From Candidatus Saccharimonadota bacterium (lineage in GTDB: Bacteria > Patescibacteriota > Saccharimonadia > Saccharimonadales > JAXHMH01), in contig JAXHMH010000002.1 of NCBI GenBank assembly GCA_034521515.1, positions 344,379-408,378 on the forward strand: a DNA stretch of 64,000 bases, written 5' to 3'. A program made the position numbers and the translations under genes. The notes beneath the pieces are model-generated. The model was not told the DNA's origin. It saw only the letters and a list, made by a program, of their open reading frames with translations, and searched no databases. Numbering within the stretch: position 1 is the first letter of the stretch; each line of letters begins with the position of its first letter. Below are positions 1 to 54,410 of this stretch, piece by piece.

Positions 1-416
1 TTGGTGGCTTCTGGCTCACCTTGGCTCAGCATATACTTAAACCCGCCGAATATAACCATCGCGACCGCCACCAAACCGGCTATCCGCAAAATTATCTCAA
101 AAACCGCCAGTAATACACGTCCAGCAGTGGCTCCAACGTCTGTATTCCCATCTTTATCAGTCGGCAATGTTAGCGAGCAGCCTTCGATTTCGCCTTCTTG
201 CGAGCCATCCAGATATTCATACTCTAGATATTCATACCAGGTAGGGAAGCTAAAAAACCCACCACCCGACGCACACTCACCAGATGCGGCTGATGAGTCT
301 GTGCCAGATTCATTATTATCGGCATTTACAACATTAGCCGGTAAGATGACCAACGCAAAAAACATAATAAAAACAAGCACCCAGGCTAAATAATTCGCTT
401 TGAAGGAATTAACCAC
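1..416 (-). CDS. Partial (3' end runs off window) small secreted membrane protein, VirB2/TrbC-pilin-like; paralog of the adjacent gene
   Basis: Absent from the ORF track because it is incomplete. Reverse-strand translation from GTG at 416-414 (AGGAGG 5 nt upstream) gives MVNSFKANYLAWVLVFIMFFALVILPANVVNA (signal peptide), then GECASGGGFFSFPTWYEYL. A hydrophobic helix follows, LLAVFEIILRIAGLVAVAMVIFGGFKYMLSQGEPEA, matching IGGIQYSMARDNPQA of the 409..1098 product. The listed + ORF 1..393 is its antisense shadow. Confidence 0.6.
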   Translation of the reverse strand, partial: MVNSFKANYLAWVLVFIMFFALVILPANVVNADNNESGTDSSAASGECASGGGFFSFPTWYEYLEYEYLDGSQEGEIEGCSLTLPTDKDGNTDVGATAGRVLLAVFEIILRIAGLVAVAMVIFGGFKYMLSQGEPEAT

Positions 417-1098
417 CGCTACCTCCTTGGAATAATCCACCCGGCACTAACCATTGAAGTATTGCAAACATCGCAAAGAATAGTACCAGCGCCAGCACAG
501 CATTAAATATTCTCTGACGTGCCGCAGCAACTGCTTGCGGATTATCACGTGCCATAGAGTACTGTATACCGCCGATTGTAATCATAATCACGATCACGAT
601 ACCAACCAAAGCAGAAAGACCGTTGATGAACGTCAACAGATAACCCATTATTGGACAGCTGTCCGGGTCAAGACCATCCCTACAGTTTGTATTGAGACTT
701 CCGTCCTGTCTTGCTAGTTGTTGTGTGCGCTCTTCTCTGGTGGTAACACCCTGACATTCGAGGTCACTCCGTCGGTCATCAGGGCTACAGGAGTCTATAA
801 CAGATTCTATATACGCTGTTTCGCTTATTTCTTGTGGCTGCCTATTACCTAAAGCTATCTCAGTTGCCATTTCAAGGCTATCAATCCTGTAATATTTTCC
901 GTCTTCCAGTCCATCGTACCCAGCTTCAGAACATAAACTCGCCGTGTAATTATCACCTGAGCTGCTGCGCCAAGCACACTTCGCTGGATCAGCAGCACTA
1001 ACATCACCTACGTCTATAAGTGGTACCCCGACGCTAACAGCCATAAAGACAACCGCCAAAGCTACATATTTTATGTGTTTATATTTTTGCTTGAACAT
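409..1098 (-). CDS. Secreted membrane protein, VirB2/TrbC-like pilin candidate
   Basis: Signal peptide MFKQKYKHIKYVALAVVFMAVSVGVPL and a Cys-containing ectodomain. The C-terminus has two hydrophobic helices separated by a charged loop (IVIVIMITIGGIQYSMARDNPQAVAAARQRIFNAVLALVLFFAMFAILQWL), the VirB2/TrbC topology. It sits in a T4SS-like gene context. Confidence 0.5.
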   Translation of the reverse strand: MFKQKYKHIKYVALAVVFMAVSVGVPLIDVGDVSAADPAKCAWRSSSGDNYTASLCSEAGYDGLEDGKYYRIDSLEMATEIALGNRQPQEISETAYIESVIDSCSPDDRRSDLECQGVTTREERTQQLARQDGSLNTNCRDGLDPDSCPIMGYLLTFINGLSALVGIVIVIMITIGGIQYSMARDNPQAVAAARQRIFNAVLALVLFFAMFAILQWLVPGGLFQGGSGG

Positions 1099-2357: not shown

Positions 2358-5132
2358 ATGAAACGAGTCTGGCTACTCTTAGCAATGTTTTTCGTTGCTG
2401 CTATTTTTCAACCTCTTTTCGTGTATGCAATGGATGTGCGTCCACTGGATCAAGCCCAAGTCCCTTCTGGAATCGCGCCTCGCGGAGATACTGGAAATCA
2501 GCTGGCCTTTACTGGTAATGGGCTCACTTTTAATATTATTAACCGTGCGGTAATTGAAGTTGAAGTAGACAATTCCAGTGACCAAGTCTGGACTGGCGTA
2601 GAGACGAGCTCTAGCACCATCGCCAATGTGGTTGGCGGTAGACTTATACGTTCACACCATCACCGTGATCGCTCCCCTAGTAGAGACTTAACTCACTACG
2701 TACTAGATAATTCTACTGATGGCTACGGATCCAAAGGGTATACGAGATATACTGCAATCCGAGACGTTAATGCACTGACAACTAGTTCTGCTGACTTGAG
2801 CGAGAGATGGAGGAGCCTTTCAGACCAAGATATAGTAGATTCATTCGATGGCTCTTGGGCGCAAATTATATCAACGTACGAAAGAATACCGGATCCGGTA
2901 AGAGACGGGTGTCAGCTTACTGTACACGGGCGAGGAGACCTCCATCCTGGTCTAGGTTTGACAAACGCAACTGACGACACCCCAGAATTGCCAGTTGCAT
3001 GGGCGTGCAACGCTGATAGAATTTTCGAGATAACCAACGCGTTAAATAACCTAGAGAATTACAATGTAACACACGAGGCTAACGATGACGGTACGACACT
3101 TGCCATCGTTTTCCCAGAAAACGACGCATCACGCGACTCATTTGTGTATTGCGACGACAATCAGTATGCCCTTGAGAGCTGTGAGAACCCTCGCGGCAAC
3201 TGGATTATAGATGGTCACAACCCTGACGACTTCATGAAAGACTCCAATGTGCCTGTAACCGTAACAAACGGGAGCCAATCATTCCCCATGTCAGTAGCGG
3301 GGAACGAATCAGAATCCTCTACACATATAGGTGGTGGAGGTTCATCGGATCCAGACCAAGACTCCTGTGAATCAGCTGGTAATTTGTCATGGATACTTTG
3401 CGGTTTAGTCCATATGACTGGAGGTGCTCTTAACTGGGTATCTGGCCAAGTTGAGACGCTGCTTGACGTCCCTGAAGAGCGCTATCGTCATGAGGGTATA
3501 CAACAATCGTGGACACTCGTCCGTAATCTTGCTTATATATTGCTCATTCCAGCTATGCTCATCATGGTTATTAGCACTGCGCTTGGTTTTGACTTCGTCA
3601 GCTCCTACACCGTAAAAAGTGCTTTGCCAAGAATGGTAGCGGCAACAATACTGATTGCGCTGTCATGGGAGTTGACTGGGTTTATGATTGCTGTTGTACA
3701 TGCTATAGGCCAGGGTATTGCTGGACTCATATTATACCCGTTCCCAGACGCAGCAACTGAACTTTCCAATATCGTTAGCATTACAACTGGTGGAGCATTA
3801 ACTGTTGGGGTTATTGCTGCCGTTGCTGTAGCTGGCGGTCTGTCAATAATACTATCGTTCCTCGGCTCAGCACTGCTTATAATATTTATGGTATTCATGT
3901 TCCTGGTGGCTCGAGAGATGATGATTTTGGCACTTATCATTGTCGCCCCGCTGGCAATCATAGCCTGGATTTTCCCGGGGCTTAACAAGTTATGGAGTAC
4001 CTGGTGGGGATATTTCTATAAACTATTGTTTATATATCCCGTAATTATGGCAATGTTAGCAATGGGGCTCGTATTTGCCCACATGCTAGACGATGCCCAA
4101 ACTACCGGAGGAGCCGCAGGCGAAGCCCAGAACGCCCTTATCCCACTATTTCAAATTGCTGCAGTAGTTATACCGTTTGCACTTATACCGTTGGCGTTCA
4201 AACAAGCCGGGGGTGCAATGGGAAGCTTAGCTAGTGCCGTAGATCAGAGAAGGCAAGGCGTAGAAGGCAGACTCAAAAAACAACGCGGCGCCAAGGCCGC
4301 CGAAAACTTTGCCAAAACACAAAATTTCAGCCGCTTCAAGGGAGCTAACAGAATATCTAGGGGGGCAAATAGCCTGCTAGGATATACCTCTAATGCCGGT
4401 AAGGCGGGTGTAAATCCACGCAAGTGGAAAAGAAAGCTAAGCACAGTCGCTTCAGATGCATCAATTGCACAGCATGAAGCAATGCTTAAGGATGAAGGTT
4501 ATGAGCCGTGGAAAGGTAACGACGGGCTCAATAAAGCTGCGTCATCAACAAACAATGCTAGGGAGCTAAGAAAAGCACTTATTGCATCGGGTGATTACAA
4601 AGGACCTAACGCTGCTGCAAATCTAAACAGAGACGTTGAACGTGTTGAAGCTATGCGCCAGAAATATGGTAATACGGCACTCAAGCAAGCTGCATGGGTA
4701 CAAGCAATTTCCGGTGGTACTGCATTCAAAGGAACTACTGATGCCTGGGAGGCAGCTGGTAAAATTGCAAACGGTGACGATGCCGTGCTCGCTAAGCTCG
4801 TTGCTCAAGGTCGTAGTGCAGCCATGGGAGCCGGAAGAATCGACCAGGGTGGTGCAGGTTTTATGGACACTATGAAAGTCGCGCAGTCATATTATGAAGA
4901 CCCTGGGTATCGACCTGAGGATGCTGATGCAACTCACGCAGCAAATGTCATTAAATCTCAAGGCCCAGGATCTCTAGCACATGCAAGCATGAAACCTACT
5001 GCAATCAAGAATCTTGCCCCGGCTTTCCAGAAACGCATTGAGGGAGCAACAAAACAGGGCGACAGAGAGACTGCTCAAGCATTGGCATCAGCCGCTGGAT
5101 CACTGACATTGGCACGTCGCCGTGCTTACTAG
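2358..5132 (+). CDS. Large polytopic membrane protein, VirB6/TrbL-like candidate
   Basis: Signal peptide (MKRVWLLLAMFFVAAIFQPLFVYA), ~330-aa ectodomain, about 8-9 hydrophobic helices between aa ~340 and 620, and a ~300-aa soluble C-terminal region. The architecture and position next to PrgI-like/VirB4 genes fit VirB6-type channel subunits. No catalytic motif is seen. Confidence 0.45.
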   Translation: MKRVWLLLAMFFVAAIFQPLFVYAMDVRPLDQAQVPSGIAPRGDTGNQLAFTGNGLTFNIINRAVIEVEVDNSSDQVWTGVETSSSTIANVVGGRLIRSHHHRDRSPSRDLTHYVLDNSTDGYGSKGYTRYTAIRDVNALTTSSADLSERWRSLSDQDIVDSFDGSWAQIISTYERIPDPVRDGCQLTVHGRGDLHPGLGLTNATDDTPELPVAWACNADRIFEITNALNNLENYNVTHEANDDGTTLAIVFPENDASRDSFVYCDDNQYALESCENPRGNWIIDGHNPDDFMKDSNVPVTVTNGSQSFPMSVAGNESESSTHIGGGGSSDPDQDSCESAGNLSWILCGLVHMTGGALNWVSGQVETLLDVPEERYRHEGIQQSWTLVRNLAYILLIPAMLIMVISTALGFDFVSSYTVKSALPRMVAATILIALSWELTGFMIAVVHAIGQGIAGLILYPFPDAATELSNIVSITTGGALTVGVIAAVAVAGGLSIILSFLGSALLIIFMVFMFLVAREMMILALIIVAPLAIIAWIFPGLNKLWSTWWGYFYKLLFIYPVIMAMLAMGLVFAHMLDDAQTTGGAAGEAQNALIPLFQIAAVVIPFALIPLAFKQAGGAMGSLASAVDQRRQGVEGRLKKQRGAKAAENFAKTQNFSRFKGANRISRGANSLLGYTSNAGKAGVNPRKWKRKLSTVASDASIAQHEAMLKDEGYEPWKGNDGLNKAASSTNNARELRKALIASGDYKGPNAAANLNRDVERVEAMRQKYGNTALKQAAWVQAISGGTAFKGTTDAWEAAGKIANGDDAVLAKLVAQGRSAAMGAGRIDQGGAGFMDTMKVAQSYYEDPGYRPEDADATHAANVIKSQGPGSLAHASMKPTAIKNLAPAFQKRIEGATKQGDRETAQALASAAGSLTLARRRAY

Positions 5133-5358
5133 CCCTCAACTTGCTGAAGTTTTTGCAGATAATGTAATGGGCTACGAAGTTGAAGGGTATGGAACCGTTA
5201 AGGACATGATTGAGGCCTACAGAAGTGACGATAACTTTAATCAGATGAGGCGAGAATATGAAAGACAGGCAACAGCTGATGCAGTAAGAAATTCAGCAAA
5301 TCCGCCAGCCGAACCCGGAGCTGGGCCACCTACAGCACCGCAAGATAGGCTTTCTTAA
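5122..5358 (+). CDS. Small hypothetical protein (possibly a frameshifted tail of the preceding gene)
   Basis: GTG start overlaps the stop of 2358..5132 by 11 nt; alternative ATG at 5167. No recognisable domain. It ends just before the SD of the ancestral prgI-like start. Confidence 0.3.
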   Translation: MLTSPQLAEVFADNVMGYEVEGYGTVKDMIEAYRSDDNFNQMRREYERQATADAVRNSANPPAEPGAGPPTAPQDRLS

Positions 5359-5373
5359 AAGGAGAAGGAAAGA

Positions 5374-5426
5374 TGGCAACATATAAAGTAATATCAGATA
5401 TCTAAGCAGAGTATAAACTGCTCGGA
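5374..5426 (+). pseudogene. Duplicated 5' fragment of the PrgI-like gene (remnant start left upstream of an inserted TA cassette)
   Basis: These 53 nt match 6245..6297: the first 30 nt are identical, followed by 4 mismatches. One mismatch (GAA to TAA at 5404-5406) stops the reading frame after 10 codons. The fragment is preceded by a strong SD (AAGGAGAAGGAAAG) that the intact copy lacks. Confidence 0.8.
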
Positions 5427-5518
5427 CAACGGGCTTAGTACAGTAAAACTATCCGAGTAACCTTTTGCAACAACTCGTAGATTAAACACCTAAATATGTA
5501 TATGAACGGAAGTTTAAC

Positions 5519-5558
5519 TTGACTTTAAGTTTAACTCGAGTTAAACTTGAACCATATG
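5519..5558 (+). promoter_or_regulatory. Promoter/operator of the Phd-VapC operon, leaderless configuration
   Basis: TTGACT (5519-5524), 17-nt spacer, TAAACT (5542-5547), then ATG at 5556, 8 nt after the -10. There is no SD. An 18-bp perfect palindrome GTTTAACTCGAGTTAAAC (5529-5546) overlaps the spacer and the -10. Confidence 0.6.
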
Positions 5559-5822
5559 AAAACTATATCTGCTAAAGAGCTGCGTGACAACCTTGGCGAA
5601 ATAACTAAACGGGTGAGCGCCGGCGAACATATCTACGTAAGCTACAGAAATAAACTGTCTTTCAAGCTAGAACCAGCGACCCCTCCAAAGCCCGCGCGTA
5701 AAAAGCTGGCTGGCCTAGAAGCCTTTTTGGCGGCACCAAAGAAGCCTTCTCAGCACAATCCGGACAAACCCGCAAAAGAAATATATCACGAGCTTCTGGA
5801 TGAAAAATATGGCTCCAAGTAA
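5556..5822 (+). CDS. Type II antitoxin, Phd/YefM family
   Basis: The N-terminus MKTISAKELRDNLGEITKRVSAGEHIYVSYRNKLSFKLEP is typical of Phd/YefM. It is small and overlaps the downstream PIN toxin gene. The ORF-track TTG at 5547 is less likely than ATG 5556. Confidence 0.75.
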   Translation: MKTISAKELRDNLGEITKRVSAGEHIYVSYRNKLSFKLEPATPPKPARKKLAGLEAFLAAPKKPSQHNPDKPAKEIYHELLDEKYGSK

Positions 5823-6198
5823 GCTGTTTTTGGATGCCAATATCCTAATAGAGATTCTAGAATCCCGGCCAAAACATAAAAAAGCGGAAAAACTGTTGCT
5901 TTCAGGTGCGGGGAATTTGCATATCTCTACCCTGACATGCCACATTGCTGCTTATGTGTCCCGAAAAAGAATTGGTCTGGAAGTACTCGAACAATTCTTA
6001 GGCGACTATATTTGGCTAGAGCTGAAACCTGAGGACATAGCTTGGGCATTTGATAACCGCCGTGACAATGACTTTGAAGACGCCCTGCAGATTGCCATGG
6101 CTGTAAGAAGTGGTTGTAGCGTGTTTTATACCCTAGATAAGCAACTCGTCAATGCCTATGCTACCTTGCCCACCCTGGAAGTAAAGTTACTCAAATAG
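5800..6198 (+). CDS. vapC: Type II toxin, PIN-domain VapC family
   Basis: PIN acidic-residue pattern: LFLDANILIE near the N-terminus, DFEDALQIAMA, and TLDKQL near the C-terminus. 132 aa, with a 23-nt overlap with the antitoxin gene. Confidence 0.75.
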   Translation: MKNMAPSKLFLDANILIEILESRPKHKKAEKLLLSGAGNLHISTLTCHIAAYVSRKRIGLEVLEQFLGDYIWLELKPEDIAWAFDNRRDNDFEDALQIAMAVRSGCSVFYTLDKQLVNAYATLPTLEVKLLK

Positions 6199-6212
6199 CA
6201 TAAGTATTTACT

Positions 6213-6240
6213 CAGCACTCTGTACTGTGTACTCTGTACT
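6213..6240. repeat. Heptad tandem tract (cagcact ctgtact gtgtact ctgtact)
   Basis: Four consecutive 7-nt units lie directly between the TA cassette and the ATG (6245) of the PrgI-like gene. Confidence 0.75.
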
Positions 6241-6244
6241 TACA

Positions 6245-7366
6245 ATGGCAACATATAAAGTAATATCAGATATCGAAGCAGAAGATAAACTGCTGGGGCC
6301 GCTGACACTCAGACAGTTTATCTATGCATGTATTGTCGTGGTATCGGGTTATATTGCATTTCGCCTTATATTTGTTAGTTGGCTGCTAGTATTGCCGCTA
6401 CTGCCAATCATGATATTTTTTGGTTTATTGGCGTTTCCATTTACCAAAGATCAACCGGCGGAAGTCTGGTTATTGGCGCGTTTGCGGTTTTTCTTAAAAC
6501 CACACTTACGAATCTGGAGCCAAGACGGCATACAAGAGCTAGTATCTGTTACTGCCCCTAAATTACCAGAAAAGCAGCTTACCAAAGACTTTTCCCAGAC
6601 CGAAGTAAAAAGCCGTCTAAGGGCTTTGGCAGATACAATTGATAGCCGTGGATGGGCAGTCAAGAACGTCAACGTTAATCTAACTGGCCAACCATCCGCC
6701 GCAAACGGTGCATCAGATCGGCTCGTCCAGGCCACGTCAACGCCTCAACCGGTTGCCGATATCGATATTGGAGCATCCGATGACATGCTGGATGAACAGT
6801 ATAACCCCCGCGCACAGTCTCTCGATAAACTCATAAACGCCTCCGGTCAAGCGCACCGGCAGCAAATAGTGCAACAGATGAAGCAGGCTCCCCAACAGAC
6901 GCAGGAACCGGCAGCTAATTACTGGTTTATGAACCAACCATCCGGACAACCGCAACCAGGCTACAACACCGGTAAAGGTACCGTAATCACGCCAGGAAGC
7001 AACGACCAAAAACCCTCAAACCAACAACCAACCACCCAAGAGGAACAAGCCTTGCTCGAGAAAATCCATAAATCAAAACAGCAGCCACAACCTGGCTCCA
7101 GTCATATCAAGACTATCCAACCCATCGATCAGAATAACCCCAATCCTGCGCAAACAACACAACCGCAACCAGAAGCTCCTAATCAAGCCAACACCCCACA
7201 ACAAGCTACTAACGAACATCCCCAAACCAGCCCCCAAAAAACACAGCCCGATCCAGCCCTATTAGAACTTGCCCATAACGACGATCTGAATGTCGAAACC
7301 ATAGCCCGCCAGGCCAACAAGCACAACGACGATGACCCGGAGGAAGTGGTAGTATCGCTACATTAA
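6245..7366 (+). CDS. PrgI-family (VirB3-like) T4SS membrane protein with long Q/P-rich C-terminal tail
   Basis: N-terminus MATYKVISDIEAEDKLLGPLTLRQFIY followed by two hydrophobic helices, the PrgI-family pattern. It lies immediately upstream of VirB4-like genes. The C-terminal ~180 aa are Q/P/N-rich low complexity. ATG 6245 is preferred over track GTG 6227 because the duplicated fragment at 5374 begins at the same ATG. Confidence 0.55.
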   Translation: MATYKVISDIEAEDKLLGPLTLRQFIYACIVVVSGYIAFRLIFVSWLLVLPLLPIMIFFGLLAFPFTKDQPAEVWLLARLRFFLKPHLRIWSQDGIQELVSVTAPKLPEKQLTKDFSQTEVKSRLRALADTIDSRGWAVKNVNVNLTGQPSAANGASDRLVQATSTPQPVADIDIGASDDMLDEQYNPRAQSLDKLINASGQAHRQQIVQQMKQAPQQTQEPAANYWFMNQPSGQPQPGYNTGKGTVITPGSNDQKPSNQQPTTQEEQALLEKIHKSKQQPQPGSSHIKTIQPIDQNNPNPAQTTQPQPEAPNQANTPQQATNEHPQTSPQKTQPDPALLELAHNDDLNVETIARQANKHNDDDPEEVVVSLH

Positions 7367-7368: not shown

Positions 7369-7403
7369 TGAAGTACTTAGTACATAGTCCTCAGTACCAA
7401 GTA
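7369..7403. repeat. Heptad tandem tract (gtac-type: gaagtac ttagtac atagtcc tcagtac caagtaa)
   Basis: Five 7-nt units lie between the PrgI-like stop and the 3' end of the four-helix-bundle gene. Confidence 0.65.
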
Positions 7404-7418
7404 AAAGCCACTCAACTT

Positions 7419-7769
7419 CTACGATGGTAATTTACGTATAAACCCTGACAGAAGCTTACTGACTTCAATAACCTCAGAAAGCAGTTTCTTTTGATTTTTG
7501 TCGTTAAGATAACCTAAATCTTTAGCAACAATAAGCATCGACTCAACTTCAAACGCTGATCCTTTGGCAATATACAGATAGTTTCTGAGAGATTTGTTGC
7601 TTTGTTTTGCATAACCTTCGGCAATGTTGTTCATAATCGATACAGCTGCGCGTTGAATCTGATCCCTGAACCCGTAATCCTTGCATGTACTAAAAGAACC
7701 GTAAACATCTGTCGTTAATTCGCGAGCTTTTTGCCACGCAATTATGTCTTTAAATGATTCAATACCCAC
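7419..7769 (-). CDS. Four-helix-bundle protein (23S rRNA intervening-sequence protein family)
   Basis: Shows AWQKARELTTDVY, NNIAEGYAKQS and AKGSAFEVESML, signatures of the PF05635/TIGR02436 family. 116 aa, GTG start. It is antisense to the surrounding T4SS genes. Confidence 0.8.
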   Translation of the reverse strand: MGIESFKDIIAWQKARELTTDVYGSFSTCKDYGFRDQIQRAAVSIMNNIAEGYAKQSNKSLRNYLYIAKGSAFEVESMLIVAKDLGYLNDKNQKKLLSEVIEVSKLLSGFIRKLPS

Positions 7770-7801: not shown

Positions 7802-7836
7802 TGTACTAGGTACTAGGTACTGTGTACTCCGTACTT
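7802..7836. repeat. Heptad tandem tract (tgtacta ggtacta ggtactg tgtactc cgtactt)
   Basis: Five phase-locked 7-nt units lie upstream of the four-helix-bundle gene. The CTAG-containing units give stops on both strands. Confidence 0.8.
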
Positions 7837-7898: not shown

Positions 7899-8783
7899 GT
7901 GGGAAACGTTTATTTCATGAATCCTAATTCACCAAACCAACAACCACAACAAAACCAGCCTGCTGCCAACCAACAACAGGGCTATACTCCAGCCGGACAA
8001 CCTGCCTCCGGCCAAGTTAACGCACCCCAACAGCAACCAGCTCCCGCTAAAACCAATCCAAACAGCACGCAAAACTCCATGGAAATTGCCGAAATCCGCG
8101 ATGGGCTGGTGATCATGAATGACGGCAGCTTCCGATCAGTTGTGATGGCAAAGTCAATAAACTTTGACTTGATGAGCAACGAGGAGCGCGAAGCCGTTGA
8201 GTACAGTTATCAAGGCTTTTTAAACTCTTTGTACTTTCCGGTACAGATTTTTGTAAGGTCACAAAAAGTTGATTTGCGGCCGTATATTGAACGGCTTGAT
8301 AAAATTCGCACCGAGCACGACAATATGCTATTAGCGCTCATGATGGAGGATTACATTAATTTTATCGGTGATTTAAGTATGCAGACTAATATTATGGATA
8401 AGAAGTTTTATATTATCATCCCGTATTTCCCGTCAGTTGATGTTCAAAAAGCACTTACTCAGAGCAAGAATTTATTCACCGGAATTACCAGCATGTTTAA
8501 TAAAAATGAGCAGCATGTGGTTGTCAATGAACAAGATCTCAACAAGGCCAAAGATGAACTACGCAACCGTGTTCAGGCAGTGCTCGGCGGTTTACAACAA
8601 TCTGGCGTTCAAGGTCTGCCACTAGATACTCAGGAACTTATTGAGCTGTATTACGATTCATACAATCCAGATACTGCCACCAGACAGCAGCTGAAAAACT
8701 TCAACGATCTAACTGCTCCTATTGTTACACGCGGTGAAGGTCAGGCAGTAAACCCTAGTTTAGAAAGGGAGCTTGATCAATAA
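7899..8783 (+). CDS. VirB4 N-terminal-domain-like protein (first half of an apparently split VirB4)
   Basis: After a Q/P-rich N-terminus comes EIRDGLVIMNDGSFRSVVMAKSINFDLMSNEEREAVEYSYQGFLNSLYFPVQIFVRSQKVDLRPYIERL. This resembles the N-terminal region of Gram-positive VirB4/TraE-type ATPases. The stop overlaps the next ATG (TAATG at 8781-8785). Confidence 0.5.
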   Translation: MGNVYFMNPNSPNQQPQQNQPAANQQQGYTPAGQPASGQVNAPQQQPAPAKTNPNSTQNSMEIAEIRDGLVIMNDGSFRSVVMAKSINFDLMSNEEREAVEYSYQGFLNSLYFPVQIFVRSQKVDLRPYIERLDKIRTEHDNMLLALMMEDYINFIGDLSMQTNIMDKKFYIIIPYFPSVDVQKALTQSKNLFTGITSMFNKNEQHVVVNEQDLNKAKDELRNRVQAVLGGLQQSGVQGLPLDTQELIELYYDSYNPDTATRQQLKNFNDLTAPIVTRGEGQAVNPSLERELDQ

Positions 8784-10699
8784 TGCTCGGCAAGAAGAAA
8801 TCCGATACTCAAACTGATCCGGTCGCCCTAGCGCAAGCACAACGTGCCCGTGAGCAGCAGGAGGTTACTGCCGCTTTCCAAAAGGGCATAACGGCACTGC
8901 GCGATTTTATTGCTCCTGCTTCACTGGAGTTTAAGGGTACTCACTTCCAAATCGGCACTCGTTTTGCCCGTACGTTTTACGTTTACGGATACCCACGCCA
9001 AGTATTTACCGGCTGGATATCCAGTATGGTCAACCTCGATGAGGTGATGGATTTGAGTATATTTATCTATCCGGTCGAGAGCCAGGTAATACTAGAAAAC
9101 TTGCGCAAAAAAGTTTCCCAGATGGAGGCTGGCATCCAGATCGATGCCGAGAAAGGGCGTGTCCGCGACCCCGGCAGGCAGGCCGCCATCCAAGATGCCG
9201 AAGAAATGCGCGACAAATTACAGGTAGGCGAAGAGCGTTTTTTCCGTTTCGGATTTTATTTCACAGTTTACGGTGGCAGCATGGACGAGCTTGAATTTGT
9301 CACCCATAAGGTCGAGTCAGTTCTCGGTCAACAATTAATTTACTCAAAACCTGCCAGCAGCCAACAAGAACAAGGTCTTAACAGTACATTGCCGCAGTTC
9401 AGCGATCAATTACAAATCAGGCGAAACTTCAGCACCGGCGCGTTAAGTACCAGCTTTCCATTTACCAGCGCAGACCTTACACAGGATGAGGGCATCTTGT
9501 ATGGCATAAATATGCACAATTCCGGGCTAGTTATTTTTGACCGTTTCTCTCTAGAAAACGGCAACTCGGTGGTGTTTGCAAAATCCGGTGCCGGCAAATC
9601 GTTCACTGTTAAATTAGAGGCGCTGCGTAGCATGATGTTTGGTACTGAAGTATTTATTATTGACCCGGAAAACGAGTACCAGCGCATGGCAGAAGCCGTT
9701 GGTGGAGCTTATGTCCGGCTTAGTCTTAACTCTGGCACTCGACTTAACCCATTTGATTTACCACAAGTCATAGACACCGACGAGGCGGATAACGCTTTAC
9801 GCAGCAACCTCATAACACTTCATGGGCTATTAAGATTAATGATGGGTGGAGCGCAGACGCAGATGCTTGAGGGCACCGCAACAACTATGCCCGCCCTCGC
9901 ACCATCAGAAGAAGCCGACCTAGACGCCGCGTTAATTGAAACCTATGCCAAGGCCGGTATTACCAACGACCCACTCACCCATAAATCACAGCCCCCTACC
10001 ATAAACGACCTATATGACACATTGCTACACATGGGTGGCAGCGGCCCGCAACTTGCTCAACGCCTCCGTAAATACACTACCGGTACATTCGCCGGCATAT
10101 TCAGCCAACAATCCAACGTAGATATCAACAACCAGTTTGTAGTGTTCAACATCCGTGACCTAGAGGACGAGCTGCGCCCCGTGGCTATGTATATTGTCCT
10201 AAACTACATCTGGAACAAAACCAAATCCGACCAAAAAAGGCGCATGCTAGTAGTTGATGAGGCCTGGCAGCTCATGAAATATGAAGATTCTGCTAACTTC
10301 TTGTTTAGCCTGGCAAAACGCGCTCGCAAATATAACCTTGGTATCACCACGATAACTCAGGACGTAGAGGACTTTATGGGATCGCGCATGGGTCGGGCTA
10401 TTGTGGCCAACGCCAGTATGCAGATACTACTCAAGCAGTCTCCATCGGCTGTAGATGTACTAAGTGACGTGTTCAAACTTACCAGCGAAGAAAAGAAACG
10501 CCTCAGTCAGTTCCCGGTCGGCCAAGGTCTGTTTTTTGCCGGGCAAAACCATGTCCATATCCAGATTGCCGCTAGCCCAACCGAAACCGGTTTAATCACG
10601 ACCAATCCGCAACAAGTACAAGCCGCCGAACAGGGCGGTGAGCTTAATCAGCCCCAAGGTACAATTGACCTTCAAAATCGCCTAACACCAGGCGTATAA
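8783..10699 (+). CDS. virB4: VirB4-like T4SS ATPase (middle and ATPase domains)
   Basis: Walker A is FAKSGAGKSF and Walker B is RMLVVDEAWQLM. The VirB4-type middle region is FARTFYVYGYPRQVFTGWISSMVNLDEVMDLSIFIYP. Also present is RKYNLGITTITQDVEDF. Confidence 0.85.
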   Translation: MLGKKKSDTQTDPVALAQAQRAREQQEVTAAFQKGITALRDFIAPASLEFKGTHFQIGTRFARTFYVYGYPRQVFTGWISSMVNLDEVMDLSIFIYPVESQVILENLRKKVSQMEAGIQIDAEKGRVRDPGRQAAIQDAEEMRDKLQVGEERFFRFGFYFTVYGGSMDELEFVTHKVESVLGQQLIYSKPASSQQEQGLNSTLPQFSDQLQIRRNFSTGALSTSFPFTSADLTQDEGILYGINMHNSGLVIFDRFSLENGNSVVFAKSGAGKSFTVKLEALRSMMFGTEVFIIDPENEYQRMAEAVGGAYVRLSLNSGTRLNPFDLPQVIDTDEADNALRSNLITLHGLLRLMMGGAQTQMLEGTATTMPALAPSEEADLDAALIETYAKAGITNDPLTHKSQPPTINDLYDTLLHMGGSGPQLAQRLRKYTTGTFAGIFSQQSNVDINNQFVVFNIRDLEDELRPVAMYIVLNYIWNKTKSDQKRRMLVVDEAWQLMKYEDSANFLFSLAKRARKYNLGITTITQDVEDFMGSRMGRAIVANASMQILLKQSPSAVDVLSDVFKLTSEEKKRLSQFPVGQGLFFAGQNHVHIQIAASPTETGLITTNPQQVQAAEQGGELNQPQGTIDLQNRLTPGV

Positions 10700-10703: not shown

Positions 10704-10731
10704 TTATGAGCTATGAGTGTTGAACTATGAG
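10704..10731. repeat. Heptad tandem tract (ttatgag ctatgag tgttgaa ctatgag)
   Basis: Four 7-nt units lie directly after the virB4 stop. A TGA in each unit gives stops in all three + frames. An inverted copy of the unit (ctcataa) occurs at 10945-10951 on the far side of the truncated gene. Confidence 0.65.
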
Positions 10732-10951
10732 CAAAGCAGCAGAAGGTTACGCCAAACAAATCGACCGATCTTTTAGGCGCTTTTTGCTCACTGCCAAAGG
10801 GTCAGCTTCAAAAGTGCAGTCTATGCTTATACTGGCCGATGACATACAATATACATCAGAGGAGCAACTAGGATCACGCTTCACGTTAGCGAAAGAGGCG
10901 GCAAAGATTATAGGCGGACTTAAAAATAAACTCCATTCTCAAAACTCATAA
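10727..10951 (+). pseudogene. Truncated four-helix-bundle protein gene (C-terminal ~70 aa only)
   Basis: AEGYAKQIDRSFRRFLLTAKGSASKVQSMLIL aligns with residues ~50-116 of the 7419..7769 product. About 45 N-terminal residues (helices 1-2) are missing, and only 27 nt separate it from virB4. Confidence 0.7.
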
Positions 10952-15722: not shown

Positions 15723-16785
15723 TTTTGTTTGTCGGAATAACGTGGCACTGGTCTAGAAAATGCTGCACAACGATATCAGCATCCGTGGTAGTTATAAACG
15801 TTTGATAACCAGCCAAAAACTCGGTTAACGCCATGCGCCGGGCGCCATCCAGCTCACTAAACACATCGTCAAGTAGTAGTATCGGTTTCTCATCGCGCAC
15901 TTCCTCGACCAACCGCACTTCAACAATCTTCAACCCAAGTAGTAGCGTCCGTATCTCGCCGCGCGACCCAACCTCATCCGCCGGATGATTGTCCAACGTA
16001 ATGTGCATATCGTCACGGTGAGGGCCGTACCCGGTAAAGCCACGCTGTATATCCAAGTCCTGCGTGGCTTCCAGTTTGCTCAACATCTGTGACTCATACT
16101 GATGCCCGCTACAAGCTGTTTTATACTTAACACCCACCGTAATCTTACTGTCTGACAGTTGTCGGTAGATAGTCTGGAGTTCTTGATTAATTCGGTTCAC
16201 CAGTGCCAGTCGTTCTTTAGCGATTGCACCACCTAGTTCTGCCAGCCTGATATTCCAGGCAAAAATCTGAGTGTTAACATGGCTATCGCCAGACTTTAAT
16301 AACGCATTACGTTGCGCCAACGTCCGCTTATATTGGCGGCGAAGCTGCCCGAAACCGACCACCATCTGCTCCAACATATCGTCCATAAACTCGCGCCGGC
16401 GTTCAGGTGATCCGGTAAGCAGCCGTAAATCATCCGGCTCAAACAATACAACCGGTACGGTTTTATTCAGCGACAAACGCTTGTATGTCTTATCCGCCAA
16501 AACAAAACTTTTCTGAACCCGATCGGCACCCTCTATTGTTTCTAATTTAACCGTGCGCGTCCCGTGGCTAGTAAATGCGTCGAGGCGCGACCACGGAGCT
16601 TTGTGGCGAACCAACTCACTATCCCGAGCCCTGTATGAACTACCCAGACACGCTACCAATAGCGCCTCCAGCAAATTTGTTTTACCGCTAGCGTTTGGGC
16701 CAACCACAATGTTAACCCCAGGCTCAAACTCAAAACTATCGTTATGATATGACCTAAAGTCCTGCAAGTTAAGCGCTTCAATCAC
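15703..16785 (-). CDS. recF: DNA replication and repair protein RecF
   Basis: Walker A is GPNASGKTNLLEAL and the Walker B-like motif is ILLLDDVFSELD. GTG start. It sits in the dnaA-dnaN-recF synteny. Confidence 0.9.
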   Translation of the reverse strand: MIEALNLQDFRSYHNDSFEFEPGVNIVVGPNASGKTNLLEALLVACLGSSYRARDSELVRHKAPWSRLDAFTSHGTRTVKLETIEGADRVQKSFVLADKTYKRLSLNKTVPVVLFEPDDLRLLTGSPERRREFMDDMLEQMVVGFGQLRRQYKRTLAQRNALLKSGDSHVNTQIFAWNIRLAELGGAIAKERLALVNRINQELQTIYRQLSDSKITVGVKYKTACSGHQYESQMLSKLEATQDLDIQRGFTGYGPHRDDMHITLDNHPADEVGSRGEIRTLLLGLKIVEVRLVEEVRDEKPILLLDDVFSELDGARRMALTEFLAGYQTFITTTDADIVVQHFLDQCHVIPTNKTKESVQ

Positions 16786-17158
16786 GCTTAGTCTCCCGTC
16801 GCTTGTCGCTTGTCGCTAGCTTACCAATAAACCCTGTCAGTAATTTTGAGATCTCTATTGAGATACCTGTGAATTGTTTGTACTCATTTTGATGAATTTT
16901 ATTTGCTGCTAGCGCAATATGAAGCATGGAGCGGACTTCCGCACATGAGCCACGTGCAATTACTAAAAACTGCCTAAGCTCCTTGTCCGAACTCCTGTCA
17001 AACCCTTCGGCAATATTGTTAGTGATAGATAAGCAAGCTCTCATAATCTGATCCTTAAACGATAGATCTCTCTCATACTTCAACTCCTTACTAAGCCCTA
17101 TGTATAGCTCTTCGCCTTTTTGCCAGGCAATCACATCCTCAAAATTCCTTATACGCAT
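16778..17158 (-). CDS. Four-helix-bundle protein (23S rRNA intervening-sequence protein family) inserted between dnaN and recF
   Basis: Shows VIAWQKGEELY, NNIAEGFDRSS and ARGSCAEVRSML. The C-terminal 10 aa (ATSDKRRETKRD) are encoded by a heptad tract, and the stop overlaps the recF GTG (GTGATTGA). Confidence 0.8.
   Translation of the reverse strand: MRIRNFEDVIAWQKGEELYIGLSKELKYERDLSFKDQIMRACLSITNNIAEGFDRSSDKELRQFLVIARGSCAEVRSMLHIALAANKIHQNEYKQFTGISIEISKLLTGFIGKLATSDKRRETKRD
16797..16817. repeat. Heptad tandem tract (cgtcgct tgtcgct tgtcgct) inside the 3' end of the four-helix-bundle ORF
   Basis: Three 7-nt units, stop-free on the minus strand, are translated as a C-terminal extension. Confidence 0.7.
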
Positions 17159-17210: not shown

Positions 17211-18302
17211 TTAGCTTTTCAGTGGCATAATCACATGCAAATAATCATCAGTGGCAATATCGTAGAGCAGTGATGGCTCGAGCTTATCGTTAAACCCAAA
17301 CCGCACCGTTTCACCAGATAACACATTAAGTGCATCAAGCAAGTAGCGCGAATTTAGCGTAATAACACCATCGCCCTTAACTTCAGCCGATGCGTTAGAA
17401 GTGTTTTCACCCAACTGAGAAGCGATGGAACGAATACTGAGTTGTTGATCCTTTTCGCTTAGATTAATTGTTACACTACCGGCGCTTTCCCTGGCAAATA
17501 AGCTTGATACTTTGGTTACATTGGTCAGTTCGCTGCGTTTTAAGGTAGCACTGGTGGCAAAATCTCGCGGTATAAGTTTGCGATAATCAGGATATTTACC
17601 GTCAATCAACCTGGTCACTAACTCAACATCACCCACCTTAAACAACACCTGCTGGTCATCATGCGACACCTCGACATCATCTTCGCCGTCAGACACAATC
17701 CGTAGCAAATCTTGCATAGCGTTAGCCGGTATAAGTAGATTTATGTTTTCTTTTGTTTTGTGTAGCTTCTTTTCAGCTAAACGGTAACTATCGGTTGCAA
17801 CCATATATAAATTACCTTCGTGTGTGTGTAGATACACACCGGTTAAAACTGGGCGGGCTTCGTCGTTAGAAGCCGCTACGATGACTTGTTGTAAGGCGGT
17901 TTTTAGGGTTTTTCCGGGTATAGTCCATTTGTTAGCTTGCTTAATCGCTGGCATTACCGGAAAATCCTCGGCTGATATACCGTTGATAGTTGAATTGTAT
18001 TTATCGGTTGTGATGTGTAAGCGGTTTTCTTCAAGTTCTAAATCGATAACGCCGCTCGGTAAACTACCTACAAAATCCTGCATAAGCCTAGCTGGTACAG
18101 TAATCGACCCTTCTTCGCTAACCTTTGACCCGATGTAGTGGGTGATTGCAATATCCAGGTTTGTTGCCGCAATACTCAAACGGTTATCAACTGTTTTTAT
18201 AAGCACATTGGCAAGTACAGGGAGTGTCCCACGCGTATTAGCAACTCGAGCCACGGTTTGTAGTGCTTTTGTTAAGTTTTCCTGGGTGACTTGTAGCTTC
18301 AT
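17211..18302 (-). CDS. dnaN: DNA polymerase III beta sliding clamp
   Basis: The N-terminus MKLQVTQENLTKALQTVARVANTRGTLPVLANVLI is typical. 363 aa, downstream of dnaA. Confidence 0.92.
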   Translation of the reverse strand: MKLQVTQENLTKALQTVARVANTRGTLPVLANVLIKTVDNRLSIAATNLDIAITHYIGSKVSEEGSITVPARLMQDFVGSLPSGVIDLELEENRLHITTDKYNSTINGISAEDFPVMPAIKQANKWTIPGKTLKTALQQVIVAASNDEARPVLTGVYLHTHEGNLYMVATDSYRLAEKKLHKTKENINLLIPANAMQDLLRIVSDGEDDVEVSHDDQQVLFKVGDVELVTRLIDGKYPDYRKLIPRDFATSATLKRSELTNVTKVSSLFARESAGSVTINLSEKDQQLSIRSIASQLGENTSNASAEVKGDGVITLNSRYLLDALNVLSGETVRFGFNDKLEPSLLYDIATDDYLHVIMPLKS

Positions 18303-18580
18303 TTTAGACTCCTTATTACTGATTTATATAAATAGTTTTAGTTATAGTAAGGCCTGTGTAAACCGTGTAAAACTCATATTTTACAGTGGTGTAAATACGT
18401 AAAAACCGTAGGAAAACCCTGCGTATAGATTGGGTATAAAATGTGCGCAAGTCGGGTGTTTTGTACCAGGATAACTAACCTACAAGCGCCTGTGAACAAC
18501 TGCACCAAACTACCCACAGGTTGTACAAGTATTTGTGCACAACTTACCCCCAGGTTTTCTGTACGCGAACTATAAGACTG

Positions 18581-18664
18581 CAACCTACTAACTACCAATT
18601 CCTTCACCCCATCTACCATATACCAACTACTAACTACCAACTGCCATCTACCAACTACCAGCCT
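18581..18664. repeat. Heptad tandem tract, 12 units (ccaacta/ccatcta/ctaacta type) abutting the dnaA stop
   Basis: The tract is 84 nt in unbroken 7-nt register. On the minus (dnaA sense) strand the units read tagttgg/tagatgg, giving TAG in all frames. It is the same unit family as 54585-54605. Confidence 0.8.
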
Positions 18665-20030
18665 ACGCATAAAGGCGCTCCTTTATCTGAGTTATAGCTG
18701 TCTTAATATTAGAATCGTAGTTGGCTTCTTTTTCAATCTTCTCCACGGAATGAATGGCGGTTGTGTGGTCTTTCCGGCCAAGTTCTCGGGCAATTTTAGG
18801 GAAACTCAAATGCAACTCGCTTCTTAACATATACATAGCAACCTGTCTTGGCACGACGATATCTTTATCTCGTTTTGGCCCCAGTATGTCGTCCATAGGT
18901 AATTGGAAATGTTTAGCAGTACGCTCAATGATCTGTTTTGCACTCAAATGTTTTGGGCGAGATTTATTGCCGCCGAGAACCGCATTGGCAATATGTAAAT
19001 CTGGTTCTAAACTGCGCATTTCACAGAATGCCAGCAATTGGTTTAAGGCGCCTTCCAGCTCCCTAATGTTGGTCTGAAAATTGTTCGCTAAAAATTCTAC
19101 GACGGGAGCAGGCAATTCAACCCCATGCGTGTCCGCCTTAGTTTGAATGATCGCGCAACGAGTTTCAAAATCCGGCGTTTGCATATCAATGCTCATACCC
19201 CACGCAAATCGTGAACGGAGTCGCTCTTCCAGGGTAGGTATGTCTTTTGGCGGCTTGTCAGAGCTAATAATAATCTGTTTGTTAGCTTGATGGAGCGCGT
19301 TAAAAGTGTGAAAGAACTCTTCCTGAGTCTTTTCTTTGCCAGCTATAAACTGCACATCGTCGATGATAAGCACATCTGCGCCGCGGTAATAACCGGCAAA
19401 ATCAGTGTTCTTCTTATATCTAATGGCGTCTAGAAATTCCTGCACGAACTGTTCTGTTGAAACATACACCACGTGAGCGTTAGGGTTGTTGGCTCGCACT
19501 TCGTTGCCGACAGCTTGGATTAAATGCGTTTTGCCAATACCAACGCCACCATATAAAAACAACGGGTTATACTTTGACCCTGGTTTTTGAGCAATCGCCT
19601 GACAGGCGGCATACGCCAACTCGTTTGCCGAACCGACAATAAAATTTTCAAACGTATAGCGATCATTTAAACCTTGGCGGTAAGTGTGCGTGAGAGTTGA
19701 TTTGGTGGCTTGTTTTGATTGAGGTTTCTCGGCTCGATTCTTTAGAAGCACCGGTTCATCATAAGTGGGTTTTTTAGAAGGCGTTATGCTGGAATGGATT
19801 TTATACTCGATCTGCGACGGTGAAACACCGTTCTTTTTCAAAGTATCCGTTACCAGTTGATTATATTTCTGTTCAAGTTGTTGTTTGATAAATACATTTG
19901 GTACGCCAACTATAAATAAATCTTTCTCTTGGCGAAGGAGTCGGGTGTTCTTAAACCAGGTAACAAAACTCGCACGTGATACAGACAGCTCTATTTCGCC
20001 GAGTACAGCTTGCCATAGGCGATCTTGCAT
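18663..20030 (-). CDS. dnaA: Chromosomal replication initiator DnaA
   Basis: Walker A is GGVGIGKTHL and Walker B is LIIDDVQF. Sensor motifs are present, and the C-terminal DNA-binding helix is DHTTAIHSVEKI. Confidence 0.95.
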   Translation of the reverse strand: MQDRLWQAVLGEIELSVSRASFVTWFKNTRLLRQEKDLFIVGVPNVFIKQQLEQKYNQLVTDTLKKNGVSPSQIEYKIHSSITPSKKPTYDEPVLLKNRAEKPQSKQATKSTLTHTYRQGLNDRYTFENFIVGSANELAYAACQAIAQKPGSKYNPLFLYGGVGIGKTHLIQAVGNEVRANNPNAHVVYVSTEQFVQEFLDAIRYKKNTDFAGYYRGADVLIIDDVQFIAGKEKTQEEFFHTFNALHQANKQIIISSDKPPKDIPTLEERLRSRFAWGMSIDMQTPDFETRCAIIQTKADTHGVELPAPVVEFLANNFQTNIRELEGALNQLLAFCEMRSLEPDLHIANAVLGGNKSRPKHLSAKQIIERTAKHFQLPMDDILGPKRDKDIVVPRQVAMYMLRSELHLSFPKIARELGRKDHTTAIHSVEKIEKEANYDSNIKTAITQIKERLYA

Positions 20031-20087
20031 AATCCCTCCGTGTTTTTAGTTACCTCAACAGCACCAATGATAACAGAAATAAGGCAG

Positions 20088-20212
20088 TTTTCCACAGAGA
20101 GAATTTTTAACAATAAATTTGTATAGAAAAATCCAAAAACAGGGGCAGTTTTATACACAGGCAAAAACGACCCCTGTTAAACTGTGGATAATTACTGAGG
20201 AAAAGTGGATAA
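20088..20212. promoter_or_regulatory. oriC-type DnaA-box cluster upstream of dnaA
   Basis: Four boxes were read directly: TTTTCCACA (20088-20096), TTATACACA (20151-20159), TGTGGATAA (20183-20191, a perfect reverse-complement of TTATCCACA) and AGTGGATAA (20204-20212). An AT-rich stretch lies at 20098-20140. Confidence 0.7.
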
Positions 20213-20299
20213 ACTATAGCTTTTCGGGAAAAAACATTGTGAAAATCACTAAAAAACGACCGCAACCGGTCGTTTAATAGGCACCCTGCACAGTACCGT

Positions 20300-20437
20300 C
20301 TAAGCGGACAGTTTGGCGCGGCCTTTGTTGCGGCGGCGCTTTAGTACGGCACGACCGGTCTTGGTGTGCATACGCTTAATAAAACCGTGCACGCGAGCAC
20401 GCTTTCGTGTCTTTGGTTGGAACGTTCGTTTTGGCAT
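20300..20437 (-). CDS. rpmH: 50S ribosomal protein L34
   Basis: Below the ORF-track size cutoff. Reverse translation gives [45 protein letters not shown] (45 aa), a canonical L34 sequence. Confidence 0.92.
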
Positions 20438-20567
20438 ATAGTGCCATAGTACAATAATTAAAAACAGAGGTCAACCTCTTGGTATATCGATCAGTTGGGT
20501 TTGGCAGGTGGGGCAGAGGCATAAAACTCTGCAAGCAGCTTTACGAGAACCGGTATAATACAGGTAA

Positions 20568-26965: not shown

Positions 26966-27013
26966 GAGTAGTATTGTAGCAGCTTAATAAACACAAAATA
27001 CCAACCAAAAGCT

Positions 27014-54406: not shown

Positions 54407-54410
54407 TGAT

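Follow-up and report, generated by a model that had tools for sequence, protein, structure and literature searches.

Duplicated prgI starts beside toxin-antitoxin cassettes in Saccharimonadales type IV secretion loci: a possible scar of homology-guided insertion

Chromosomal toxin-antitoxin (TA) "islets" located in small hot spots between core genes have been described by Belot et al. (2026; PMC13617665). These islets were proposed to spread via homologous recombination at the core genes that flank them, the entry of naked TA operons into chromosomes without any mobile-element genes was described as unclear, and no duplicated gene start was reported as an integration scar (PMC13617665). The present analysis deals with a 64,000-nucleotide (64-kb) stretch of the genome of a Candidatus Saccharimonadota bacterium (contig JAXHMH010000002.1; this whole stretch is called the window below), in which a TA cassette lies between two copies of the 5' end of prgI. 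This type IV secretion system (T4SS) gene encodes a PrgI/VirB3-like protein, and PrgI/VirB3 has been reported to be essential for epibiotic growth in Ca. Southlakia epibionticum (PMC12102498). As in the TA islets, no mobile-element genes adjoin the cassette and independent acquisitions appear to recur at one location, whereas here it is an essential T4SS gene, in an epibiont with a reduced genome, that contains the flank used. The entry event seems to have left a readable scar, consisting of a duplicated gene start with two alleles, in at least five ultra-small epibiotic lineages and always at prgI, which would add a visible junction scar to the TA-islet picture. On the strength of sequence comparisons, we read the repeat as having been left by a homology-guided insertion-duplication at the conserved 5' end of prgI, within a TA hot spot, and give this reading a probability of roughly 0.55. 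No literature linking Saccharibacteria, T4SS and toxin-antitoxin systems, or describing TA cassettes at prgI, was found.

Several other known processes come close to what is seen at this locus. In Campbell-type insertion-duplication, the single crossover of circular DNA with one segment of homology, on which the insertion-duplication mutagenesis of naturally transformable bacteria relies, the insert is flanked, as it is here, by direct repeats corresponding to the homology segment, which may be donor/resident hybrids; no element-encoded recombinase is needed, and excision between the repeats would regenerate a one-copy circle. The present case differs in that the homology amounts to only about 45–73 nt, no circle has been observed, and the event is a natural one, occurring at an essential gene in several lineages and with varied cargo. 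Homology-facilitated illegitimate recombination is known from the natural transformation of Acinetobacter and Streptococcus pneumoniae, and the Saccharimonadales hosts are likewise thought to be naturally competent. The locus has in common with this process a single conserved anchor (the 5' end of prgI), foreign DNA beyond it and variable junctions, whereas the classical cases are insertions with a deletion and not with a duplication. The integrative elements targeting gene ends (tRNA and tmRNA islands, prophages) also leave target-derived repeats a few tens of nt long, with an element-borne copy that keeps the gene intact, but they rely on an integrase and a fixed att core and mostly use 3' ends, while in the present case no integrase was found, replacement affects the 5' end, the insert measures only about 0.8 kb and the junctions vary. 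The TA cassettes of chromosomal integrons form arrays of small co-oriented cassettes at one chromosomal site, as is the case here, but no IntI, attI or attC was found at prgI, and the repeat consists of host coding sequence.

The repeated prgI start and the cassette between its copies

The intact prgI gene (6245–7366, forward strand; 373 aa) matches the Pfam PrgI profile PF12666 (8.1e-10, 39.6 bits, cut-off 27). Its first 53 nt (copy B, 6245–6297) were found, in a repeat search of the window, to be present a second time upstream (copy A, 5373–5425, forward strand), with 49 of the 53 nt identical and a spacing of 872. Copy A was also recovered (E = 3.2e-8) using an nhmmer profile built from 73 prgI starts. 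The repeat, which a preliminary description of this DNA had pointed out with a start at 5374, one base too high, is thus confirmed. As stated there, the first 30 nt are perfectly matched and four mismatches follow (nt 31, 39, 40, and 51), the first of which creates a TAA at 5403–5405, so that copy A is a 10-codon open reading frame (ORF). The 30-mer occurs at only these two sites in the 64 kb, even when three mismatches are allowed, and gave no match in 100 shuffles. Extension of the repeat past nt 53–55 is marginal and is not claimed (shuffle p = 0.15 for nt 54–73 and 0.03 for nt 54–83). No other genes with duplicated starts were found in the window.

Copy A lies immediately 3' of a Shine-Dalgarno (SD)-like stretch, AAGGAGAAGGAAAG (5359–5372, forward strand), which itself follows the stop codon of orf78 (5356–5358) and which, as read from the sequence and from the parallel context in a related locus (L005, see below), would mark the former prgI start. 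Copy B is preceded by a period-7 tract (6209–6240 according to TRF) in which there is no SD-like motif, so that the contrast drawn earlier between a strong SD upstream and a bare heptad tract downstream holds. The insertion had been placed at the very start of the gene; it is in fact situated inside the coding sequence, after about nt 53–55.

The complete module announced between the copies, consisting of a promoter/operator, a Phd-type antitoxin and a PIN toxin, is indeed present, as judged from a promoter scan, a palindrome and Pfam matches, that of the antitoxin being sub-threshold. The antitoxin gene (5556–5822, forward strand) encodes a Phd/YefM-type protein of 88 aa, matching PF02604 (PhdYeFM_antitox) over residues 1–37 with 3.9e-5 and 23.8 bits, below the gathering cut-off of 29.8; its 74% identical homologue in L045 reaches 31 bits, above the cut-off. 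The toxin gene (5809–6198, forward strand), which overlaps that of the antitoxin by 14 nt, encodes a PIN-domain (VapC-type) protein of 129 aa. It matches PF01850 (9.2e-12, 46.1 bits, cut-off 23.6), a score obtained on the form starting at 5800 and not at 5809, and the 129-aa form is named PIN domain-containing protein by NCBI. An alignment of eight members of the subfamily shows D9, E15 and the FEDAL motif (D88-F-E-D-A-L) to be invariant. The promoter (TTGACT-17-TAAACT, 5519–5547) has its -35 box at 5519–5524 and its -10 box at 5542–5547, 8 nt ahead of the antitoxin ATG at 5556, which is a leaderless-type arrangement. It is overlapped by a palindrome with 19-nt arms (5510–5548, forward strand), which is predicted to be an autoregulatory operator. 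Besides this inverted repeat, the repeat search recorded a direct repeat here, and L088, L089, and L083 have the promoter/operator element conserved ahead of their homologous cassettes (four cassettes including that of the window). The cassette is therefore predicted to be a type II TA system of the VapBC type with a Phd/YefM-fold antitoxin, the activity of the toxin and its neutralization being predictions as well. With the known VapBC systems of this kind it shares the overlapping genes, the palindromic operator over the promoter and the conserved acidic PIN residues, whereas its antitoxin falls short of the Pfam cut-off and its PIN subfamily is very rare (29 clusters among 5.8 billion proteins). 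The ends of the cassette were found to lack terminal inverted repeats.

Recurrence of the duplicate and of TA cassettes at prgI

A second natural example is provided by L002 (Logan SRR26473340), an independent assembly which carries the relic, the cassette, prgI and the neighboring IVP gene with single-nucleotide polymorphisms of its own; the structure is therefore not an artefact of a single metagenome-assembled genome. L002 differs from the window at nine positions in the first 81 nt (relic and flank) and at nine in the next 2519 nt, the stretch containing copy A being hypervariable between the two strains. The relic of L002 has no stop codon, and four third-position changes, all synonymous, are all that separates it from the intact start. 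Both relics are mosaic, the segment that agrees with copy B not being the same in the two, which suggests that conversion or the import of variant sequence may have occurred at this spot; a chimeric tip of the L002 contig is a more remote possibility. It might be argued that the whole structure arose by the chimeric joining of two strain variants through a common k-mer, all the more so since the Logan contigs L002 and L088 end in or next to the repeat, which must therefore disturb the assembly graphs. The relic-cassette junction recurs, however, in the independent sample L002, analogous structures are found in four other contigs originating from different projects and assemblers, and the copies are not identical, so that the collapse or expansion of a repeat cannot produce them. 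We regard an assembly artefact as having a negligible probability.

As no close relative lacking the cassette was available in the collections, the comparison was made at the level of the family, using 80 metagenome prgI loci (of 423 matches; over 3500 PrgI homologues were found) along with loci reached via the toxins, and 65 non-redundant Saccharimonadales prgI loci were counted. The closest other PrgI is only 58% identical, a contig scan for relatives yielded a single one (45% identity, with a different upstream gene), and an exact-protein look-up for an empty site returned only the same relic-TA-prgI structure. In L005, the prgI N-domain of which is 68.5% identical to that of the window, second to that of L003, the sequence reads orf78 homologue, TAA, AAGGATTAATAA and the ATG of prgI, with nothing between. 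Since this context is the same as that of copy A, copy A would be the former start and the cassette an insertion, which supports the earlier view that the cassette was inserted into the T4SS operon.

Twelve of the 65 loci carry one to three TA cassettes directly upstream of prgI. When the loci were searched with the profile of prgI starts, second copies were detected only in TA-bearing loci: a duplicated start flanks the cassette in 5 of the 12 TA-bearing and in none of the 53 TA-free loci (Fisher p = 9.6e-5), and in the subset not chosen through the toxins the figures are 2/6 and 0/53 (p = 0.009). The prospect that cassette-free relatives might show the fragment as well was thus not borne out, while the suggestion that other cassettes flanked by duplicated gene starts should be sought led to four further lineages. 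Besides the Phd-PIN cassette of the window and L002 (53 nt, 49/53 identical), these are L014, where an RHH-PIN_3 cassette is accompanied by a duplicate identical at 71/71 nt; L022, where the relic (90% over 72 nt) is fused in frame to the MNT gene of an MNT-HEPN cassette; L088, where a Phd-PIN cassette with a toxin 67% identical to that of the window is accompanied by a relic with its own -10 box, an older, third relic (nt 10–28) being present as well; and L101, where an RHH-PIN_3 cassette is preceded by a relic of about 70 nt with an extended -10 box. No decayed relics were found in the seven other lineages with cassettes, L003, L010, L042, L045/L083, L089, L099, and L102 (nhmmer, E<=10).

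The cassettes belong to a few families, namely Phd-PIN (window, L045/L083, L088, L089, and L003), RHH-PIN_3 (L014, L045, L099, L101, L102, and L010), MNT-HEPN (L022 and L102), RHH-MazF (L003), FitA-PIN (L010) and an unassigned antitoxin with a PIN toxin (L042). All 17 are co-oriented with prgI, in arrays of up to three. The three closest members of the window PIN subfamily on long enough contigs (70, 67, and 56% identical) are all situated directly upstream of prgI, and the same is true of the three closest homologues of the L014 toxin. The gap between the VirB6-like block and prgI appears to be a hot spot in which a few TA families accumulate and are exchanged, and the Saccharimonadia T4SS locus, needed for epibiotic life, would be a preferred parking place for addiction modules. 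In one lineage (L006–L008), a gene coding for an IS200-like Y1 transposase (PF01797, 3.3e-6; L006 3252–3881) lies directly upstream of prgI, and the same intergenic site therefore also takes an insertion sequence (IS) element. In L010 (1500–4000), two tandem diverged antitoxin and PIN_3 copies (about 75% identity, 874-nt period) are followed by the FitA-PIN cassette, and a remnant coding for a PIN_3 C-terminus is present after the stop codon of the third toxin, which suggests that cassettes have been duplicated and replaced within this array.

The presence of homologous cassettes (toxins 56–73% identical) at the same position in diverged genomes could also go back to a single ancient insertion, or to a few, passed on by vertical descent, with gene conversion keeping the duplicate alike and the differences being conversion patches. 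The near-equal spacings, which amount to 872 and 866 nt for Phd-PIN and to 852 and 854 nt for RHH-PIN_3, and the mosaic relics of the window and L002 are in line with such a history. The genomes sharing a cassette are, however, not each other's closest relatives in terms of their prgI N-domains: that of L045/L083 ranks about 42nd of 82 in similarity to that of the window, although its toxin is the closest (70%). In addition, most of the intervening lineages have no cassette at all, the more distant members of the PIN subfamily of the window are located elsewhere, in unrelated contexts, and the two Phd-PIN junctions differ (nt 55 versus nt 45–47). A shared ancient insertion appears to be quite unlikely.

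Origin of the duplicate

Between each relic and the corresponding intact start, all the differences within the homology are synonymous in L002 (4/4), L088 (7/7) and L101 (7/7), which makes 18/18, and one non-synonymous difference is located right at the junction in L088 (nt 46) and in L101 (nt 71). In L088, the seven differences all occur in nt 1–27, nt 28–45 being identical, and the chance of all seven falling on third codon positions is 1.4e-4. Three synonymous and two non-synonymous differences, including the stop, were recorded in the window, two synonymous and six non-synonymous ones in L022, and the start codon is the only difference in L014. A neutral relic beside a constrained gene would be expected to show mostly non-synonymous differences, with some 40% synonymous according to our own estimate. 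The 18 synonymous differences may mean either that two working starts from different lineages have been juxtaposed or that the relic peptide is under selection, and the latter is disfavored because the stop codon of the window and the non-synonymous differences of L022 tell against it. As the differences are synonymous only, the copies probably diverged as functional starts in different lineages and were not duplicated in situ before decaying; this pattern of two alleles is found in L002, L088, and L101, the window copy itself showing mixed differences.

Purifying selection on a peptide would be expected if the upstream copy were functional, be it as a translated leader or micro-ORF regulating the TA operon or prgI, or as a free N-terminal peptide of PrgI. 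The synonymous-only differences in three lineages would also fit this explanation, and so would the strong SD on the window copy and the native-type -10 boxes ahead of the relics in L022, L088, and L101. The relic ORFs vary, however, in length and tail (10, 21, 23, 27, or 53 codons, or a fusion to MNT) and have nothing in common beyond the part derived from prgI, so that the fragment is not part of a conserved small ORF, an alternative that had been envisaged in the preliminary description. Furthermore, the window copy stops at codon 11, the ATG has been lost in L014, several of the six non-synonymous differences of L022 affect invariant or nearly invariant PrgI residues (T3, K5, and D14), and the seven TA-bearing lineages mentioned above have no relic. 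A functional role of the upstream copy is therefore very unlikely.

A different origin would be the duplication of the target on entry of the cassette, by the filling in of wide staggered cuts, comparable to a long target-site duplication, or by template switching of the type occurring in microhomology-mediated break-induced replication (MMBIR), in which case both copies would be resident. The identical copies of L014 and the identical nt 1–30 of the window speak for it, as do the contexts upstream of the relics, which look native (an SD like that of L005, and the extended -10 boxes in L022, L088, and L101). Such a duplication would not account, however, for the excess of synonymous differences over the 40% expected, nor for duplicate lengths ranging from 45 to 73 nt, and it would leave the recurrence of the same cassette families at one gene unexplained; neither terminal inverted repeats nor a transposase accompany the cassettes. 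We hold this origin to be unlikely.

Under the homology-guided insertion-duplication which we favor, prgI would originally have been translated from an SD placed right after the VirB6-like/orf78 gene, as it is in L005. The incoming DNA would have contained the Phd-PIN operon and a prgI start, and would have recombined with the resident gene via the first 50–70 nt or so. Since the cassettes of other Saccharimonadales directly adjoin prgI on its upstream side, incoming cassette DNA would often carry a prgI start, and nowhere else in the locus is the nucleotide sequence as well conserved across the family as in the first 70–75 nt or so of this gene. The event might have been of the Campbell type, in which a circular molecule undergoes one crossover (the circle possibly resulting from recombination between the repeats in a previous host), or it might have combined a one-sided homologous join with an illegitimate join at a break. 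The old start would thereby have been left upstream with its SD as a decaying 10-codon relic. After it would come the TA operon, equipped with an autoregulated promoter of the leaderless type, and then another prgI start, fused to the body of the resident gene; the empty or excised site would read AAGGAGAAGGAAAG-ATGGCAACATAT...GAAGCAGAAGAT. The insert is flanked by direct repeats equal to the target segment, which is what insertion-duplication produces. Of the two origins put forward in the preliminary description, homology-guided cassette capture is favored by the five independent duplicates around four types of TA operon and by the synonymous-only differences in L002, L088, and L101, while the comparative data speak neither for nor against a replicative junction. 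If it is correct, a short conserved coding segment would serve as a recombination handle for swapping selfish cassettes between species, which is a testable model, and the interruption of an operon would be tolerated when the insert supplies or preserves the start of the downstream gene.

Several points weigh against this origin. Neither a near-isogenic empty site nor a donor was found in the collections, and it is for this reason that the mechanism is one that we infer. Three of the five junctions cluster at nt 70–73, which a purely homologous or illegitimate join would not predict, although the shorter duplicates could be eroded. The 30 and 71 nt that are identical between the copies in the window and in L014, respectively, look like an in-genome duplication; otherwise the events would have to be recent, or gene conversion would have to be invoked. 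Another tract of this genome (7801–7836) shares 81% identity with the heptad tract preceding copy B, so that the segment in front of copy B is more readily explained as native than as coming from a donor. One-sided homology on a linear fragment is not sufficient for a duplication to arise, so that a circle or a break-repair geometry has to be assumed. Lastly, copy B has no canonical -10 box, and the way in which prgI would be expressed is conjectural.

The homology ends at nt 45–47, 55, 70–72, 72, and 73 in the five lineages and at nt 28 in the older relic of L088. These ends are too variable for a fixed target-site duplication to be likely; the objection raised earlier, that the duplication is too long for that of a transposase, is shared here and is reinforced by this variability. 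No integrase or transposase was detected among the 39 ORFs scanned in the window or beside the cassettes in the related loci. A transposon or IS insertion with target-site duplication was considered and rejected in view of the variable lengths and of the lack of transposase and terminal inverted repeats, and so was an integron gene cassette, since there was no integrase-family match in the scanned ORFs and no shared structured repeat at the cassette borders. No attC-like motif common to these borders was seen, no dedicated attC model having been run.

The clustering of three junctions might nevertheless point to a site-specific platform, with the first 72 nt or so of prgI acting as an attachment site at which a recombinase encoded elsewhere and acting in trans would insert circular TA cassettes directionally, the duplicates being attL and attR. 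Such a trans-acting enzyme is conceivable, and it would account for the presence at a single site of at least five TA operon types in co-oriented arrays, for the recurrence of the same cassette families here in distant genomes and for the fact that the duplicate always begins at the start codon; two other TA cassettes of the window are also situated between homologous repeat blocks. This segment of prgI would then be the dedicated docking site of a Saccharimonadia cassette-capture system, integron-like, and either integrase-less or served by an unrecognized recombinase, which would load a small TA repertoire (Phd-PIN, RHH-PIN_3, MNT-HEPN, and others) in a fixed direction ahead of an essential origin-proximal T4SS gene and shuffle it there. 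The TA cassettes bracketed by repeats and the heptad arrays found elsewhere in the genome may have some relation to such a system. The absence of any integrase, transposase or IntI-like gene among the 39 window ORFs scanned and beside the cassettes of the related loci, that of a common attC-like motif, the junctions at nt 45–47, 55, and 28, and the seven TA-bearing lineages without any duplicate are at odds with this explanation, and the co-orientation can be explained equally well by selection against antisense transcription into an essential gene. We consider both the platform and the docking system to be improbable.

Expression of prgI and surroundings of the locus

A -10-like hexamer is present no more than 20 nt ahead of the ATG in 62 of 75 distinct prgI upstream regions; it is at 7–9 nt in 43 of them, and 22 of these hexamers carry a TG extension, while an SD-like motif is present in only 11 regions. 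A start without an SD is thus the norm for prgI in the family, and a leaderless-type mRNA is implied, as it is for the TA operon. No description of a leaderless prgI was found in the literature. The question previously raised as to how the gene is translated now that its SD has been stranded is much reduced by these figures: prgI would be expressed without an SD, as in most of its homologues. Its transcription could proceed by read-through from the TA operon, which is plausible because no terminator was called between the toxin and prgI, or from a weak TANNNT -10 box in the heptad tract, or from both. This tract, (nnGTACT)n, extends from 6206 to 6241 (forward strand; TRF period 7) between the toxin stop codon (6196–6198) and prgI and holds TANNNT hexamers, TACTCT at 6230–6235, 9 nt before the ATG, and TTTACT 17 nt upstream of the ATG. 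No canonical promoter was called before copy B, its -10 candidate being a minimal TANNNT (TACTCT) under the threshold of the promoter scan, and any promoter role of the tract is putative.

The heptad tract is not specific to the cassette: period-7 tracts, which recall the short tandemly repeated repetitive (STRR) heptamers of cyanobacteria, are common in the intergenic DNA of this genome. The idea that the GTACT tracts flanking prgI and the IVP gene might be cassette-specific terminal repeats was dropped, such tracts being frequent between the genes of this genome and having other units in other genomes. In the window, heptad tracts are present at 6209–6240, 7372–7404 (reverse strand), 7803–7835, 16798–16817, 18585–18660, 21850–21885, 31946–32029, 54412–54723, 55406–55501, and 56061–56193; their units differ, and some of them create a TANNNT every 7 nt. 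Similar tracts occur beside TA cassettes or upstream of prgI in L010, L014, L045, L088, and L101.

The assignment of the intact gene to the PrgI/VirB3 family is based on the profile match and on its position by virB4 in a T4SS cluster, which also contains T4SS pilin, VirB6-like and TrsD/TraC-like genes, and the identical protein is annotated as PrgI family protein in a Candidatus Saccharibacteria metagenome-assembled genome (706-kb contig). The order VirB6-like, prgI, orf294 (TrsD/TraC-like), VirB4 was observed by tblastn in most of the 80 loci. In the window, the pilin gene (Pfam) is at 409–1098 (reverse strand) and the VirB4-type ATPase domains (Pfam) are at 8783–10699. The block upstream of the insertion encodes a VirB6/TrbL-like T4SS membrane protein of 924 aa (2358–5132, forward strand), identified on the basis of its homologues and of synteny; it has no Pfam match of its own, and its homologues in L083, L088, and L099 carry PF19590 (TrbL_3). 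The last ORF before the original prgI start, orf78 (5122–5358, forward strand), has tblastn matches in L005, L021, and L079/80 and corresponds to the C-terminal part of the single VirB6-like ORF of L005 (958 aa; L005 1112–3988). The VirB6-like gene looks split near 5100–5135, where the ORF at 2358–5132 ends and orf78 continues in another frame; the cause could be a frameshift or a sequencing error, or the gene could really be split.

The 23S_rRNA_IVP family (IVP, four-helix bundle) is represented by three genes, at 7419–7769 (reverse strand), 10727–10951 (forward strand, truncated) and 16778–17158 (reverse strand). Two of them break up the T4SS operon, whose L005 counterpart is compact; inverted GTACT heptad tracts lie on both sides of the first, and the equivalent intergenic slots of L012 and L083 also hold IVP genes. 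No duplicated gene ends were found around the IVP genes of the T4SS cluster, nor were any RNA elements or tRNA genes that might serve as integration targets detected in the window (no Rfam matches, no ARAGORN genes). The window also encodes dnaA, dnaN, and rnpA (all within 17211–20912), with yidC, recF and a jag-like gene nearby, and the spacer between dnaA and dnaN contains a heptad tract (CCAACTA x7). The T4SS cluster is about 10 kb from this dnaA/origin region, in agreement with the location near the origin reported for the T4SS of Patescibacteria (PMC12102498).

Two more TA cassettes are located at 54404–56199, between the genes at 52676–54406 and 56181–56951. The first consists of an ORF at 54811–55101 and a YafQ/ParE-type toxin gene (55098–55364), the second of an RHH antitoxin gene (55554–55784) and a ParE/RelE-type toxin gene (55756–56031). 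Both are bracketed by homologous composite heptad arrays, [GAGACTn]n followed by [TGATAGn/TAATAGn]n (54480–54573, 54616–54677, 55406–55501, and 56061–56193), which gives the layout repeat, empty slot, repeat, TA, repeat, TA, repeat. A 34-nt repeat containing a hairpin (22667–22700 and 27008–27041, 97% identical) flanks a 4.3-kb block encoding a PaaX-like protein, an 891-aa protein with a GDSL lipase domain and a 204-aa ORF, and could correspond to terminators or to island borders. Further genes of the addiction/defence type are those coding for a MazF/PemK-type toxin (29917–30258, reverse strand) and a protein of the Fic/DOC family (27510–28649, reverse strand).

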